Origin: Candidatus Limnocylindrales bacterium
Lineage (GTDB): Bacteria; Chloroflexota; Limnocylindria; Limnocylindrales; CSP1-4
Direction: 5' to 3'
Length of the DNA stretch: 64,000 nt
NCBI GenBank assembly: GCA_050014975.1
Contig: JBEKCH010000003.1
Location: forward strand, 8,081-72,080
In this document: in pieces, positions 38,212 to 44,405 of the stretch
Position numbering within the stretch: the stretch's first letter is position 1
Layout: each line of letters opens with the position of its first letter
Notes under the pieces: generated by a model
The model's input: the letters and a program-made list of their open reading frames with translations, nothing else
Told to the model about the DNA's origin: nothing
Databases searched by the model: none
Made by a program: the position numbers and the translations under genes

Positions 38212-38376
38212 GCCCGAATGATGCCCGCTGTCCACGGGCTGCGCCAGGCCTGGTGCGGTGACGCGACCGCCGGGTCGCCCTGTGCCCATGCCACGGTGGT
38301 CCTCGCGTTCCGATCGGCTGAAGCCCCACGGTAGCCAGCTGCCTGGAGACGCGCTAGCATGTTGGTCGGTTCAACC

Positions 38377-38424
38377 CGCGATGAAGCTCGCGCAGTTTCC
38401 CGCCCAGCGGGTGATGGCTTCTGG
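38377..38424 (+). ncRNA. Fluoride riboswitch (crcB motif)
   Basis: CGCGATGAAGCTCGCG (P1 CGCGA/TCGCG), P2 CCCGC-cca-GCGGG, TGATGGCTTCT forming pseudoknot GAAGCT/GGCTTC; -10 TAGCAT at 38355. Confidence 0.82.
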
Positions 38425-38450
38425 ACACCGGTCCGGAGGCCTTTTTCGTT
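38416..38450 (+). terminator. Terminator overlapping the fluoride aptamer 3' end
   Basis: GGCTTCTGGAC-accg-GTCCGGAGGCC (11 bp, 2 G-U) followed by TTTTTCGTT. Confidence 0.85.
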
Positions 38451-38481
38451 ATCAGGCGGCCGCGGCCACTGGGGACGAATC

Positions 38482-39492
38482 ATGAGCAAGACCGACCCTG
38501 TCGAAACGGAGGCCGCGCCGGCCGGTGGACTTCCGAACACCAGCCAGGCACGTATCGGCCGCTTCTGGCGGGATCTCCGGGCTGCGGTCGCGGGCGCCGT
38601 CGTAGGTGAAGAGCCGGCCCTGCGTCTCCTTGCCGTGGCCCTGCTCGCCGACGGCCACGCTCTCATCGAGGACGTCCCAGGCGTGGGCAAGACGTTGCTC
38701 GCCCGCGCGTTCGCCCGCTCGCTCGGCCTTTCGTTCAGCCGCGTACAGGGGACACCCGACCTGCTCCCGACCGACGTTACTGGATCCAGCATCCTCGAGG
38801 CCGGCCGGCTGCGCTTCGTAGCGGGCCCGGTCTTCGCCAACGTCCTCCTGGTCGACGAGATCAACCGCGCCACGCCGCGTACCCAGTCGGCGTTTCTCGA
38901 GGCGATGCAGGAGCGCCAGGTCTCGATCGAGGGCGAGACGCGACCACTGCCTTCACCGTTCCTGGTCGTAGCCACGCAGAACCCCATCGAGCTCGAAGGG
39001 ACGTTCTCGCTGCCGGAGGCCCAGCTCGATCGATTCCTGGTCCGCGTGACCATGGGCTACCCGGACCGCGACGAAGAGCGGCGGATCGCCCGGCGCTACC
39101 GCGGCGGCGATGAGCCGCTGGATCGAATCGAACCGATCGTCGACCGTGACACGCTCCTCGCTCTGAAGCGGGCGGTAAGCGAGACCGTCGTCAGCGACGC
39201 CGTGGAAGGCTATGCGGTCGACCTGGCCCGCGCGACGCGGGGGCACGCGGACATCCGCCTCGGGGCGAGCCCGCGGACGAGCGTGGCGCTCTTCCGGGCG
39301 AGTCAGGCCTGGGCCGCTCTCGAGGGGCGAGGCTTCGTCCTGCCCGACGACGTGGTCGCGGTCGCCCGCCCGGTCCTGGCCCACCGGCTCCTGCTCGACG
39401 TGGACCGCCAGCTCCGCGGCGCGACCGTCGAGCGGGTGCTGATCGAGGTGCTGGACTCGGTGCCGGTGCCGGTGCCGGTACCCGAAAGATGA
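38482..39492 (+). CDS. moxR: MoxR family AAA+ ATPase (MRP subfamily)
   Basis: EDVPGVGKT, DLLPTDVTG, DEINRATPRTQSAFLEAM, ATQNPIELEGT, PEAQLDRF. Confidence 0.95.
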   Translation: MSKTDPVETEAAPAGGLPNTSQARIGRFWRDLRAAVAGAVVGEEPALRLLAVALLADGHALIEDVPGVGKTLLARAFARSLGLSFSRVQGTPDLLPTDVTGSSILEAGRLRFVAGPVFANVLLVDEINRATPRTQSAFLEAMQERQVSIEGETRPLPSPFLVVATQNPIELEGTFSLPEAQLDRFLVRVTMGYPDRDEERRIARRYRGGDEPLDRIEPIVDRDTLLALKRAVSETVVSDAVEGYAVDLARATRGHADIRLGASPRTSVALFRASQAWAALEGRGFVLPDDVVAVARPVLAHRLLLDVDRQLRGATVERVLIEVLDSVPVPVPVPER

Positions 39493-40724
39493 CCCGAGCG
39501 GGACTCGCCTTCGGTCTCGCCCTCGTCGTCGCCGGCGCGGTCGTGGCGGCGCCCGGACTCGTCCTCGTCGGGGTCCTGGACCTCCTGACGGTCGGCGTGA
39601 CCGGGTTGTGGAGTAGCTACGGATTGCACAACCTGCACTATGAACGGACGATCGGCAGCGACCGGGCGGTCTGGGGCGACGAGGTGCCCCTCGACGTCGC
39701 GGTCTGGAACGATAAACCGCTTCCTCTTGCCTGGCTCCTGATCGACGATTTCGCGACCCAGGGCGCGGTCGTGCGCGATGAGCCCCTCGCGCGGAGCGAT
39801 CGACCCGGCTTCACGATTCTGCGCAGCCGCTGGACGGTCGGCTGGTACGAGCGCGTCGTGCGCCATCTCACGATCCTGGCCGACCACCGCGGCGTGTATT
39901 CCTTCGGCCCCGTTCGCGTCACGGTCGCCGACCTGTTCGGCCACGGGGCGGCGACCGAGGAGCACGAAGACCGCGGCGCGTACATCGTGCGGCCGCGCAG
40001 CCTGCCGGTTCGCCTGGCCAGCCAGCAGCAGGCTCCAGCAGGCTACCTTCGAGCCCGCCACAGCCTTTTCGAGGACCCGGCTCTCTTCGCCGGCGTCCGC
40101 CCTTATCAGCCAGGCGATCCGCTGCGGCGTGTCCACTGGCGCGCGACCGCTCGGACGGGGGCAACCGTGAGCAAGCGGTTCGACCCATCCCGCGCGCTTC
40201 AGGTGCTCGTCGCGCTCGACGTTCAGACCGTGGCGGGCCCGCACTGGACGCTGCACTTCGACGAGGACCTCGTTGAGAGCCTGATGGTCGCGGCGGCCTC
40301 CCTGGCACGCCAGGCGCTCGCCGAGGGCGCATCGTGCGGCCTGGCCGCGGCGGCGTTCAGCCGGACCCTCAACCTGTTCGCCCTGGCCGCCCCACGTGCC
40401 GGCCGGGACCAGCTGGCCGCGATCACCGACCTGCTGGGGCGCCTCAGCGAGGTGCCGTCGGCGCCTTTCGAGCGCCTCCTCGCTCGCCTGCCGCAGACAG
40501 TCTCACCGGGCACCACCGTCCTGGTGCTCACCGCCCGCGACCCCGCACCGTACATCGCCGCGCTCAGCCGGCTCGACAGATCCGGCTACCACGTCCAGCT
40601 TGTCGGGCTCGGCCCGAACGGCGATCGTGCCGCGGCGCGGGCCCGGGCGGTCGGACTCGCGGCGACGATCGGCTCGCTCACGCCGGACTGGCGGACCAGC
40701 GATGCGTTGGTCCTGGCGAGCTGA
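39489..40724 (+). CDS. DUF58 domain-containing protein
   Basis: GVRPYQPGDPLRRVHWRATAR; coupled to moxR. Confidence 0.92.
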   Translation: MTRAGLAFGLALVVAGAVVAAPGLVLVGVLDLLTVGVTGLWSSYGLHNLHYERTIGSDRAVWGDEVPLDVAVWNDKPLPLAWLLIDDFATQGAVVRDEPLARSDRPGFTILRSRWTVGWYERVVRHLTILADHRGVYSFGPVRVTVADLFGHGAATEEHEDRGAYIVRPRSLPVRLASQQQAPAGYLRARHSLFEDPALFAGVRPYQPGDPLRRVHWRATARTGATVSKRFDPSRALQVLVALDVQTVAGPHWTLHFDEDLVESLMVAAASLARQALAEGASCGLAAAAFSRTLNLFALAAPRAGRDQLAAITDLLGRLSEVPSAPFERLLARLPQTVSPGTTVLVLTARDPAPYIAALSRLDRSGYHVQLVGLGPNGDRAAARARAVGLAATIGSLTPDWRTSDALVLAS

Positions 40725-42093
40725 CCCGCTCCCCGTCGCGCTCGACGCGCTGCTCGAAGGCAGCCTCGTCGGCGTGCCGTACCTGGCCATCGCGTCGGGG
40801 GGCACGAGCTCGAGCGCACCGATGTCGCTCGTCGAGTTCTGCCTCGCCGCCGCGGCCGGACTCGTTTGGGCTCGCCTGCGCCCGCAAGAAGCGCCGCGGG
40901 CGCTCTGGATCGGCGCCGTGGCGCTCCTCGCCGGTGCTTTCGGCTGGATCGCCGATCCGGGGGCTCGCGCCGCACTTGCCGCCCACACCGATCCGCTCGG
41001 GGCGCTCGGCCTTCACCCCGCAGGCTGGCTGCTCGGTGTCTCGGTCGTGCGCGGCTCGGCCCACGAGCAGGCGGCCGACGAGATCGACGTCTCGACCCGG
41101 GCATTCGCGTATGCGTTCCCCGTGCTCGCTGCGTCCTGGTTGCTGCACCTCGGACCGGGCGGCTCGTTCGCCGGGCCGGCCCTGGTCGGGTCCGTCGTAT
41201 GCGTCGGCTCCGGGCTGCTCGCGATCGGCCACGCCCGCTTGCGAGAGCTCGAGCTGCTCGGCTCAGATGGCCGTGGCGGTCGCACCTGGCCGATGCTCGC
41301 GGCCGGCGTCGTGGTCGCCGTCGCGGCCCTGGCGATTCCGACCGCGCTCCTCACCGGGACCTCCGCGCGGGACGTCGTGTCCGCCATCGGCGGCCCGGTC
41401 GGTGGGGCGACCGGAGCGCTGTTCGCACCCCTCGGCAGTCTTCTGGCCGCCCTGGCATCCGCTCTCGGGCAGTTCCTCAACGGCATTCACCTGCCTTCGT
41501 TTCCCGGCCTGGGTGGAGGCGGGGCCGCCGGCGCGAGTCCCGCCCCGAATGCCGGCCCGAGCGCCGGCGGGTCGGGTCGAGCTCCCGTCGGGGGACCCAG
41601 CGGCTCCTCGCCGCTCGGCCTGCTCATCCTGGTTGGGCTTGCCGTTGTCGTGGTCGCGGTGACGCTGTTGCTTCGTCGGCTCCTCGCCGCGCGGCCGACC
41701 GTGCCCCACGCCGCGCGACCGCGCGAGGAACGACACCGAGAGCTCCATCGGCCACGCTTGAGCCTCCGCCTGCCGCTGCCGGCCATCCACCCGCGCCTCG
41801 CCCTGCGGCGGCATCCGACATCCGCGGCAGCGGCATACGTCGCGTTGCTGGACGCTCTCGACGACAGGGGCGAGCTAGCACGGGAGCCGGCTGAGACACC
41901 GGAGAGCCACGCCGAGCGGGCCGGCAGTCGCGGGCTGTCGCGCCTGCCGCTCGGGCTGCTGGCCGCGGACTACGAGCTCGCGGTCTACGGGCGAACGCGG
42001 ATCAGCGAGGCGGAAACGGTTCGTGCGCTCGGCCGCTGGCGCCGGCTTCGGCGCGTGGCCCGCGACCTGCCGCGCCGGGGTGGCCAGGCCTGA
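40702..42093 (+). CDS. Multi-TM protein with C-terminal DUF4129
   Basis: Many TM segments; REPAETPESHAER...YELAVYG. Confidence 0.82.
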   Translation: MRWSWRADPLPVALDALLEGSLVGVPYLAIASGGTSSSAPMSLVEFCLAAAAGLVWARLRPQEAPRALWIGAVALLAGAFGWIADPGARAALAAHTDPLGALGLHPAGWLLGVSVVRGSAHEQAADEIDVSTRAFAYAFPVLAASWLLHLGPGGSFAGPALVGSVVCVGSGLLAIGHARLRELELLGSDGRGGRTWPMLAAGVVVAVAALAIPTALLTGTSARDVVSAIGGPVGGATGALFAPLGSLLAALASALGQFLNGIHLPSFPGLGGGGAAGASPAPNAGPSAGGSGRAPVGGPSGSSPLGLLILVGLAVVVVAVTLLLRRLLAARPTVPHAARPREERHRELHRPRLSLRLPLPAIHPRLALRRHPTSAAAAYVALLDALDDRGELAREPAETPESHAERAGSRGLSRLPLGLLAADYELAVYGRTRISEAETVRALGRWRRLRRVARDLPRRGGQA

Positions 42094-42116: not shown

Positions 42117-42193
42117 TGGTAGGGGAGGGAGGACTCGAACCTCCAACCGAGGCTGTATAAGAGCCGTGCTCTGACCAATTGAGCTACTCCCCC
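42117..42193 (-). tRNA. tRNA-Ile(UAU), 77 nt, CCA encoded
   Basis: GGGGGAG TA GCTC AATTGGTCA GAGC A CGGCT CTTATAC AGCCT CGGTT GGAGG TTCGAGT CCTCC CTCCCCT ACCA; anticodon TAT, discriminator A. Confidence 0.92.
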
Positions 42194-42259
42194 GCCAGGG
42201 CCCGATGGTACACCAGCCGGCCAGCGCGACGGCGCAGGTTGCGGCCCGCCGCGGCCGGC

Positions 42260-43504
42260 CTACTCCACGCCGCCGCGAAGGACTTCCATCACGGGGCGGT
42301 GCGGGATCGACTCCGGAGTGTGGGCGGCGACCAGGGCGACGCCGTCGCGGAAGCGGCGCAGCTCGCTGTCCGTGTTGAAGAAGCCGACGCTGATGCGGAT
42401 CGCGTCCAGCGGCGGGATCGTCCGGGCGATGGCCAGCGTCCGCTGCGACAGCTCGTGGAGCGCCGGCCCGGGCGTCCAGCCTGCGATGCGGAAAGTCACC
42501 AGGCCGGCCATTCGGTCGCGCGGGGTTATTACCTCGACGCCCGGGATCTCCGCCAGCATCGCCGCCGCCTCGCCGGCCAGGCGCGCGGTTCGCTCGTGGA
42601 TCCAGTTCAGGCCGACGTACATCGAGAGCCAGGCGGTGCTTCGGGCGAAGCCCAGGATCGAGGGTTGGTGGTAGCCCGCGATCTCGAACCGCCGGGCGTC
42701 GGGCCAGGGCTTTCCGGCGGCGGCCAGGTCGATCGATTCGAAGCCGGCGTAGCCGGCGAAGGTCAGGCGCGGCCGATCCAGGACCGCCGGCGAACAGTAG
42801 ATAGCGCCCGTGCCCTCCGGGCCCAGCAGCCACTTCTGGCCGGGGACGGCGTAGAAGTCCGCGCCCAGGTCCTCGACCGAGACGGGGATCGCGCCGACCG
42901 CCTGCGCGCCGTCGACCGCGACGAGCGCCCCGCGCGAATGGGCCAGCTCGACGACCTCGGCGATCGGGAGGCGCGCGCCCGTCGCCCACGAGACGTGCGA
43001 GATGGAGACGAGCCGGGTGTTCGGCCCGATCGCCCGATCCAGCGCCGCCAGCACTTCCGCCGGGTCGCCGCCAGTGCCGATGTCGGCGACGGTCAGCTCC
43101 ACTCCCTGCCGCTCGCGCAGCGCCCACAGCGGCGCCAGCGCGCCGGCGTGCTCGAGCGAGGTCGTGACCGCCTGATCGCCCGCCCGCCAGTCGATGGCCC
43201 ACGTCGCCACGTTCATGCCGTCGGTCGTGGCATGGGTCAACGCCATCCGGCGCGGCTCAGTCCCGAGCACCGCCGCCACGGCCGCCCGGGCCTCGTTCAT
43301 GCGCTCCGCCGAATCCTTCCAGTAGGCCATGTCGGCCCGGCCAGTGCGCAGCTCGATGCCCTCCAGCTCGGCCATCGCCCGGGCCGTCTCACGCGGCAGC
43401 GGCCCGCAGGCGCCCGTGTTCAGGTAGATGCCCGCGGCCGTGGCCGGCAGAGCCTCGCGGATCGCCGGCAGCTTCTCGTCGTCGGGCATGAATGGGCCAA
43501 CCAT
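42260..43504 (-). CDS. Class V PLP aminotransferase; cysteine/cystine lyase (C-DES)-like
   Basis: YLNTGACGPLP, SHVSWATG, VDGAQAVG, PGQKWLLGPEGTG; no IscS/SufS catalytic-Cys loop. Confidence 0.85.
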   Translation of the reverse strand: MVGPFMPDDEKLPAIREALPATAAGIYLNTGACGPLPRETARAMAELEGIELRTGRADMAYWKDSAERMNEARAAVAAVLGTEPRRMALTHATTDGMNVATWAIDWRAGDQAVTTSLEHAGALAPLWALRERQGVELTVADIGTGGDPAEVLAALDRAIGPNTRLVSISHVSWATGARLPIAEVVELAHSRGALVAVDGAQAVGAIPVSVEDLGADFYAVPGQKWLLGPEGTGAIYCSPAVLDRPRLTFAGYAGFESIDLAAAGKPWPDARRFEIAGYHQPSILGFARSTAWLSMYVGLNWIHERTARLAGEAAAMLAEIPGVEVITPRDRMAGLVTFRIAGWTPGPALHELSQRTLAIARTIPPLDAIRISVGFFNTDSELRRFRDGVALVAAHTPESIPHRPVMEVLRGGVE

Positions 43505-43559
43505 CGCTCCGTATGATAGGGGTCGCGACACGCCGTTCCGCCTCGTGGGAGGGTCGAGT

Positions 43560-44405
43560 TTGAGCCCGCTCGGGTACCGGCAACCGGAGCTGCTGGCAAC
43601 GCCTGAGTGGCTGGCCGAGAACATCGCCCGGCCGGGTCTTCAGGTCCTGGACGTGCGCTGGCGGCCGGACGGCTCCGGACGGCGCGTGTACGCCGCCGGC
43701 CACATACCCGGCGCCACGTACCTCGACTGGCGTGCCGACCTAGTCGAGCCGGACGAGAGCGACCTGCTGTTGCTGGCCGGCCCGCGGCGGGTGACGGCGG
43801 CGCTGAGCCGGGTCGGCCTGGGTAATGGCATGGTCGGAGTGCTGTACGACGATACCGGCAACTCCTACGCGGCCCGGGCGTGGTGGAGCCTGCGTGTCTA
43901 CGGCTTCGATTCGGCGCGGATCCTGATGGGCGGGCTGGAGGCCTGGCGAGCGCTGGCGCAGCCCGTCTCCGCGGCGCTGGAGATGCGGCCGCCGGCAACC
44001 TTCACGCCCCGCATGGAGTCGCGCCTGCGGCTGAGCGCCGCTGAGGTGCAGGATATGCTCGAGTCGGTAGACGTCCAGCTGCTCGATGCGCGACCGCCCT
44101 CGGAGTACTCAGGCCAGGCCGGAACGACGCGCCGGCTGGGTCACATCCCCGGCGCCCTGAATGTCTCGGCGGCCGCCACCACTGAACCTCGAACGGGGCG
44201 ATTCCGGCCGGCGGAGGATCTCTGGGCATTGCTGCGGCGGGCCGGGGTCAACGTCCGGCGGCGCCTGATCTGCTACGACGACGCCGGCCTCGGGGCGTGC
44301 AAACTGGCCTTCGCGCTGGCCCTGATCGGCCACCGGGACGTGGCCGTGTACGACGGCGGGTGGGCCGAATGGGGCGACCGGCTGGACCTGCCGGTCGATC
44401 GCTGA
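43560..44405 (+). CDS. Tandem rhodanese (SseA/TST-like) protein
   Basis: GHIPGA twice, AARAWW, LLDAR, VYDGGWAEW; active-site loop reads CYDDAGLGA. Confidence 0.88.
   Translation: MSPLGYRQPELLATPEWLAENIARPGLQVLDVRWRPDGSGRRVYAAGHIPGATYLDWRADLVEPDESDLLLLAGPRRVTAALSRVGLGNGMVGVLYDDTGNSYAARAWWSLRVYGFDSARILMGGLEAWRALAQPVSAALEMRPPATFTPRMESRLRLSAAEVQDMLESVDVQLLDARPPSEYSGQAGTTRRLGHIPGALNVSAAATTEPRTGRFRPAEDLWALLRRAGVNVRRRLICYDDAGLGACKLAFALALIGHRDVAVYDGGWAEWGDRLDLPVDR

Follow-up and report, generated by a model that had tools for sequence, protein, structure and literature searches.

The DNA analysed here, referred to as the window, is a continuous stretch of 64,000 nucleotides on contig C3 of an assembly of 3.07 Mb in 148 contigs that is 93.7% complete. 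The source organism belongs to an order of uncultured soil and freshwater Chloroflexota, in which genomes of its own family (f1) measure about 3 Mb and those of the sister family (f2) about 1.1 Mb. In the 64-kb window, ARAGORN detected a single tRNA, at positions 42117-42193 on the minus strand, with the anticodon tat; the program names the isotype from the anticodon alone. The tRNA gene and its associated features are as follows.

42117..42193, minus strand: tRNA-Ile(UAU) gene, 77 nt, with encoded CCA, A73 and G1.U72 (ARAGORN and Rfam RF00005)
42157..42159, minus strand: anticodon UAU (ATA on the plus strand) within the loop C32-U33-U34-A35-U36-A37-C38 (direct sequence reading)
42204..42214, minus strand: conserved upstream motif GGTGTACCATC holding TACCAT, likely a -10-type promoter element (putative function)

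The tRNA matches Rfam model RF00005 over its full length with a score of 66.9 bits (gathering score 29, E value 8.5e-14). A C27.U43 mismatch tops its anticodon stem, both in the sequence and in the ARAGORN drawing, and the combination of C32 with C38 occurs in 3 of the 44 tRNAs of the genome. The structural details given in the initial annotation (77 nt, encoded CCA, A73, G1.U72, the loop C-U-U-A-U-A-C, C27.U43 and C38) all proved correct when read from the sequence. The span 42194-42215 lies outside the tRNA and comprises the upstream leader and promoter-like sequence.

Within that span, TACCAT occupies 42210-42205 on the minus strand, 11 nt ahead of the tRNA start. The surrounding motif, GGTGTAC(C/G)ATC, stands at a constant distance from the tRNA in all eight aligned genomes of the same genus, in two of which the sequence farther upstream is unrelated and the motif is still kept. 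Because its spacing is maintained in 8/8 genomes, a -10-type element is plausible here. The earlier proposal that the gene has its own -10 is thus plausible as regards conservation, but a sigma-70 consensus scan reported no promoter at TACCAT and no -35 match. A terminator scan around the tRNA returned nothing.

On the same strand, a cysteine-desulfurase-family gene (window 42260-43624, minus) ends 67 nt upstream of the tRNA, and a two-domain rhodanese gene resembling 3-mercaptopyruvate sulfurtransferase (window 43428-44405, plus) is divergent from it. Genes for a MoxR-type AAA ATPase, a DUF58 protein and a DUF4129 protein stand in a row at window 38359-42093 (plus), convergent on the tRNA; this is an ordinary MoxR/DUF58 cluster. 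The desulfurase lies within 1.5 kb of the tRNA in several genera and is absent nearby in five others and in the sister family. A link between the desulfurase or rhodanese neighbours and thiolation of U34 was considered and set aside as a weak lead, since the proximity fails in those five genera and the sister family. Among the conserved neighbours of the tRNA in relatives' loci, no tRNA-modification gene was found.

Relatives were compared in a class-wide sample of 151 genomes with a completeness of 80% or more, which covers f1, f2 and three families of other orders (f3 to f5). Six unpublished genomes (G121, G139, G148, G152, G174 and G184) fall within the hundred from f3 to f5, and their omission leaves the picture unchanged.

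The meaning of AUA was assessed from 35 ATA sites in f1 genes. Among orthologs, I was the majority residue at 15 of these sites, V at 7, L at 4, M at 3, T at 3 and A at 2; the one further site has a majority residue outside those itemised. I, V or L thus formed the majority at 26/35 ATA sites, and M formed the majority at 401/673 ATG sites. ATA sites were less conserved than ATC sites, with Met in orthologs at a mean of 7.7% versus 1.6%. Within the limits of a small sample of 35 sites, these comparisons support a reading of ATA as Ile rather than Met. They bear on the possibility that the UAU tRNA is charged with methionine, or that AUA has been recoded to Met as in many mitochondria. In favour of such a scheme, the acceptor stem of the window tRNA is one base pair off that of the local tRNA-Met, and its overall identity to a tRNA-Met of a sister order reaches 79%. 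The residues at ATA sites (M at only 3, against 26 for I, V or L) and at ATG sites speak against it, as does general knowledge of the synthetase: MetRS depends on C34. We regard methionine at AUA as very improbable. As to the origin of the window tRNA, comparison with Met, Ile2(CAU) and Ile(GAU) tRNAs gave 66-79% identity and no clear winner.

The complement of tRNAs with UAU and CAU anticodons divides the class along the order boundary. A pattern search for tRNAs with a UAU anticodon matched the source genome, 39 of the 44 other f1 genomes and 5/6 f2 genomes, and matched 0/100 genomes of f3 to f5; a control with the reversed pattern gave 0 matches. In the five f1 genomes missed by the pattern, BLAST detected a version that is one base longer (78 nt), and ARAGORN reported tat in all three loci fetched for this version. 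Conversely, exactly one non-initiator CAU tRNA was counted per genome in 45/45 f1 and 6/6 f2 genomes, versus two in 67/100 genomes of f3 to f5 (46/50 in f4, 20/49 in f3 and 1/1 in f5). In the tilS-bearing genomes that were fetched, an initiator tRNA and an elongator tRNA-Met are joined by a third CAU tRNA, whose acceptor stem is of the GGGCCC type; this last form was present in 5/5 fetched genomes of f3 to f5 and in none of the f1 or f2 loci. By elimination, and because it was lost together with tilS, the GGGCCC-type CAU tRNA is read as the probable tRNA-Ile2(CAU).

The source genome has just two CAU tRNAs: the initiator, recognizable by C1.A72 and three G-C pairs, and a single elongator. No tRNA-Ile2(CAU) was found there, nor was a second elongator-type CAU tRNA found in the 51 genomes of the order. 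The assembly also lacks the tRNAs of the rRNA operon (Ile-GAU and Ala-UGC) and tRNA-Trp; since it is incomplete in this way, absence from it is weak evidence alone, and the argument depends on the relatives and the locus described below. TiaS (PF08489) had no match in the source genome, and the four control archaea matched.

The gene for TilS was sought with a model of its N-terminal domain (cut-off 93.6 bits). In the source genome the best match scored 22.8 bits, and this PP-loop candidate was rejected: it is the GMP synthase GuaA, identified with 780.7 bits. No genome of a set of 61 (the source genome, 36 of the same genus and 24 of the sister family) had a match above the cut-off, a set that includes assemblies of 2-10 contigs. 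In the class sample, matches above the curated cut-off numbered 0/45 in f1 and 0/6 in f2, compared with 90/100 in f3 to f5, where fragments were present in 4 more. A tblastn search with a TilS of a sister order against the whole source genome (E value up to 10) returned one artefact, which arose because the query open reading frame started inside a tRNA, and two chance matches only.

The place from which tilS is missing can be located. All six fetched loci from f3, f4 and f5 hold an elongator tRNA-Met(CAU), tilS and ftsH (NCBIfam scores at a tilS-bearing locus were 164.8 bits for TIGR02432 and 842.1 bits for FtsH). In the source genome, tRNA-Met is followed directly by ftsH across a gap of 278 nt, and the same direct succession was read in 27/30 f1 loci and 2/2 f2 loci; in the remaining three f1 loci, ftsH lies beyond the flank examined. 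By genomic comparison, tilS is cleanly missing in the source order from an otherwise conserved tRNA-Met-tilS-ftsH locus. The earlier suggestion to search the genome and its relatives for tilS and Ile2(CAU) has therefore been carried through, with neither found in the order.

The CAU tRNA beside tilS in the sister orders was considered as a candidate for Ile2, a reading under which the single elongator CAU tRNA of the source genome would be an orphaned Ile2, and rejected, as the fetched loci show an elongator tRNA-Met at that position; in f3 and f5 it adjoins the initiator. Separately, the elongator tRNA-Met upstream of ftsH occurs in two very different forms, with the acceptor stem GGCGGAG or GGCTGGG and with further differences in the anticodon and T arms (G000 C8:16084-16158, locus L129; loci L106-L135). 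The two forms are mutually exclusive occupants of one chromosomal slot, and this is so even among species of a single genus with identical tRNA-Ile(UAU). The pattern resembles that left by allelic replacement or gene conversion, here affecting an essential tRNA.

These results weigh on an explanation in which the UAU tRNA has a redundant, auxiliary role like its counterpart in Lactobacillus plantarum, and TilS and Ile2(CAU) are present in the organism and either unassembled or too divergent to be recognized. The 93.7% completeness of the assembly and its several missing tRNAs are compatible with this explanation, and tilS coexists with a UAU tRNA in G200 and G294 of the same phylum and in two Planctomycetota metagenome-assembled genomes (MAGs). 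Nevertheless, no tilS passed the cut-off in the 51 genomes of the order in the class sample or in the 61 of the second set, including those of 2-10 contigs; on intact contigs, tRNA-Met and ftsH stand next to each other with tilS missing (27/30 and 2/2 loci in the two families); a second elongator-type CAU tRNA is never present in 51 genomes; and the sole weak PP-loop match is GuaA. The auxiliary-copy explanation is largely refuted, and its remaining probability is slight.

Conservation of the tRNA itself was examined by BLAST with the window sequence, which gave a full-length match in 44/44 other f1 genomes of the class sample; ARAGORN reported tat in 30/30 of the BLAST-found loci that were fetched. 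Altogether, 66 loci of relatives yielded 32 distinct tRNA sequences from two families, in which the UAU anticodon and C32 are invariant (32/32) and G1.U72 is present in 28. Compensatory double changes were observed in 10 of the 21 stem pairs. Contigs from four other metagenome runs (peat and wetland, four studies) carried the same tRNA in several flanking contexts, with no other letters at any position. On these genomic comparisons, the window tRNA is a real gene under purifying selection. One genome of the same genus (G078) has two copies of tRNA-Ile(UAU), at C1:192844-192919 and C2:2831-2906.

ATA accounts for 1086 of 576,127 codons (1.9 per 1000) in 1358 coding-like open reading frames of the source genome, 709 of which contain at least one. 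In small samples from the fetched loci, the tilS-less families had 1.05 and 1.10 ATA per 1000 codons and the tilS-bearing families 0.70-0.84. A gene that is silent or decaying, with another tRNA reading AUA inefficiently or the codon being lost from the code, would agree with the rarity of ATA (about 1-2 per 1000 codons). The cloverleaf, however, has been kept by compensatory changes in two families, the upstream motif is conserved, and ATA is present in roughly half of the open reading frames (709/1358) and is at least as frequent as in the sister families that have tilS, as far as those small samples indicate. We give a silent gene as small a chance as an auxiliary copy. An error of sequencing or assembly, in which a single base turned CAT into TAT, is refuted: TAT stands in all 66 loci of relatives, and the contigs of the four other runs carry it without any alternative letter listed. 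CAT, which the initial annotation had named as a finding that would refute it, was seen in neither.

We place at about 85% the probability that the window gene is the sole AUA-reading tRNA-Ile of the organism, and that the order has replaced TilS and tRNA-Ile2(CAU) by tRNA-Ile(UAU). Replacement of the TilS system in this high-GC lineage had been conjectured from the single sequence; it is now supported for the whole order, which was found without tilS and without Ile2(CAU) and has a UAU tRNA conserved with covariation. The boundary of the TilS loss would accordingly run around one order and not around the whole class.

Replacement of the lysidine system by tRNA-Ile(UAU) calls for a synthetase that accepts U34. 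The C terminus of the IleRS of the source genome consists of Anticodon_1 and DUF5915, and its structure matches favour type 2 (8c9d, 174 bits; 1ile, 126.6 bits) over type 1 (1ffy, 24.3 bits); the enzyme is classed as type 2 on this basis. Its gene lies in two pieces, one at the start of contig C47 and one at the end of contig C14; as far as seen, this is an assembly break and not a broken gene. DUF5915, the IleRS2 marker, was detected in 150/151 class genomes, with all tilS-bearing families included. Type-2 IleRS, being class-wide, was therefore in place before tilS was lost, and it cannot alone have caused that loss. According to PMC13752280 (section 8), the pocket for base 34 in a bacterial IleRS2 is formed by Q961, R964, K965 and L969. 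The equivalents in the source IleRS are Q, R, K and V, and the Q, R and K are kept in all five families, except that f3 has N in place of Q and a few sequences have R in place of K. A lineage-specific change of this pocket was rejected as an explanation, since Q/R/K are kept throughout and nothing obvious accounts for the acceptance of U34. Near the pocket, just two positions differ between tilS-less and tilS-bearing families.

As for modification of U34, MnmA was identified in the source genome (314.5 bits), and MnmG (GidA) was not found there; a search of 61 class genomes with a completeness of 90% or more likewise gave no MnmG (0/61). Because MnmG was not found across the class genomes searched, (c)mnm5U and other xm5 modification of U34 tRNAs is unlikely in the class.

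The odd features of the anticodon arm, which the initial annotation had put forward as a possible means of discriminating AUA from AUG, fared unequally. C27.U43 occurs in only 5/32 distinct sequences, in few genomes, and was rejected as a discrimination device. At position 38 the 32 sequences have C (19), U (12), G (1) and A (0), and a pyrimidine there (31/32) is a conserved and derived trait of the UAU tRNA in this order. It is not a requirement, as three other tilS-less Chloroflexota genomes have UAU tRNAs with A38.

A sequence of events that would fit these data is as follows. In the ancestor of one Chloroflexota order, a gene-encoded UAU tRNA-Ile would have taken over AUA, and tilS and its substrate tRNA-Ile2(CAU) would have been lost afterwards. 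The type-2 (archaeal or eukaryote-like) IleRS, already class-wide, presumably charges the UAU tRNA. As MnmG was not found in the class, U34 would be without xm5 modification. Misreading of AUG may then be limited by the ribosome, by the anticodon loop (C32 and pyrimidine 38) or by both, in line with what has been demonstrated in Mycoplasma mobile, where the UAU tRNA is unmodified.

UAU tRNAs were also sought more widely. Across 301 genomes sampled from the phylum, the UAU pattern was present in 19/20 genomes of the source order, 0/15 of f4 and 8/266 of the others. All eight of these other Chloroflexota tRNAs, one of them doubtful, have A38-type loops. Of the five tested for tilS, two have it (G200 and G294) and three do not; in these three, G279 and G303 (one family) and G379 (another family), tilS was not found in genomes 92-99% complete. 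The anticodon arm and variable region of the G200 tRNA follow the class Ile(GAU) pattern except for T in place of G34 and one further base, and the start of its T stem differs from class Ile(GAU). The other Chloroflexota thus suggest, at the level of gene content, further independent losses of tilS together with intermediate stages.

A global scan with one genome per species yielded at least 120 stretches (loci L186-L305), and ARAGORN reported tat in 112 of 120 among the matches listed. Of those 112 UAU tRNAs, again among the matches listed, 55 have A at position 38, 50 have C, 6 have T and 1 has G. The taxa among the matches listed include many Patescibacteria, Planctomycetota and Chloroflexota and a Dormibacterota MAG, and Streptomyces contigs, one plasmid included, are also among them. 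Five of the globally scanned genomes were tested for tilS: two Planctomycetota have it, and it was not found in a Saccharibacteria, a Kaiserbacteria and a Dormibacterota MAG (completeness not given). The initial annotation rightly treated tRNA-Ile(UAU) as an exception to lysidine-based decoding, but its description as rare needs revision, as such genes are common in uncultured lineages (112 among the matches listed).

In the literature, PMC3575796 describes nine species in three clades that are without tilS and have a gene for tRNA-Ile with the anticodon TAT. PMC4013482 counts TAT tRNA genes in 19 bacterial species. TilS was present in 98.18% of the bacteria studied and was called evolutionarily stable, according to PMC6063277, and it has been proposed as an antimicrobial target (PMC12514573). 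Literature searches for tilS or lysidine in Chloroflexota, Limnocylindria and Patescibacteria/CPR, which left most subscription journals and supplements outside their reach, returned nothing relevant.

A close counterpart is M. mobile, for which Taniguchi et al. 2013 (PMC3575796) report that the UAU anticodon is unmodified, that the type-1 IleRS is adapted and that the ribosome discriminates, as measured. Like M. mobile, the source organism is without tilS, has a gene-encoded UAU tRNA for AUA and is without a CAU-type Ile2, and the path proposed for M. mobile, in which a UAU tRNA emerges and gains acceptance by IleRS before tilS disappears, fits the source order. The two differ in that M. mobile is a reduced, AT-rich parasite, whereas the source order is free-living, with about 70% GC and genomes of 1-4 Mb. 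M. mobile also has a type-1 IleRS with Arg at the Trp905-equivalent of the zinc-binding domain, and the source IleRS is type 2 without that domain. Finally, an unmodified U34 and ribosomal discrimination are measured properties of M. mobile and would be putative ones in the source order.

Closer in synthetase type are the tilS-less cases of Bifidobacterium and Neorickettsia, which have a eukaryote-type IleRS according to the same source (PMC3575796). The source organism resembles them in being tilS-less, with a tRNA-Ile(TAT) gene and a eukaryote/archaea-type IleRS. It differs in belonging to another phylum, and in that its state is fixed order-wide with a tilS-bearing sister group at hand. A suppressor of a tilS deletion in Bacillus subtilis, described by Kohrer et al. 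2014 (PMC3919564), has a tRNA-Ile with U34 derived from the major tRNA-Ile. It likewise does without TilS by means of a U34 tRNA-Ile, but it is laboratory-derived; unlike it, the UAU tRNA of the source organism comes from an old gene and differs clearly from tRNA-Ile(GAU). Neither the M. mobile subtype (type-1 IleRS with Arg or Lys for Trp905) nor the archaeal agmatidine system with TiaS was encountered here. The case matches, in gene content, the known class of TilS-independent AUA decoding in its type-2-IleRS subtype.

A broader proposal, that AUA and AUG are told apart by undescribed means (a new U34 modification or tuning of the anticodon loop) and that loss of TilS is recurrent across uncultured phyla, is tentative and, in our judgement, has about one chance in four. 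If it were true, TilS loss would be a recurrent state, reached several times in Chloroflexota and also in a Dormibacterota MAG and in Patescibacteria, and would extend beyond a few parasites.

For the source order, replacement of TilS by tRNA-Ile(UAU) would mean that free-living, high-GC bacteria with ordinary genome sizes do without an enzyme held to be near-universal and essential in bacteria. The sister orders keep TilS, Ile2(CAU) and the same type of IleRS, which offers a clean natural contrast. From this contrast it may be asked which changes in IleRS, the ribosome or the anticodon loop make an unmodified-looking UAU anticodon safe, and how often the lysidine system has been given up. For annotators, a missing tilS in such MAGs would reflect biology and not incompleteness.
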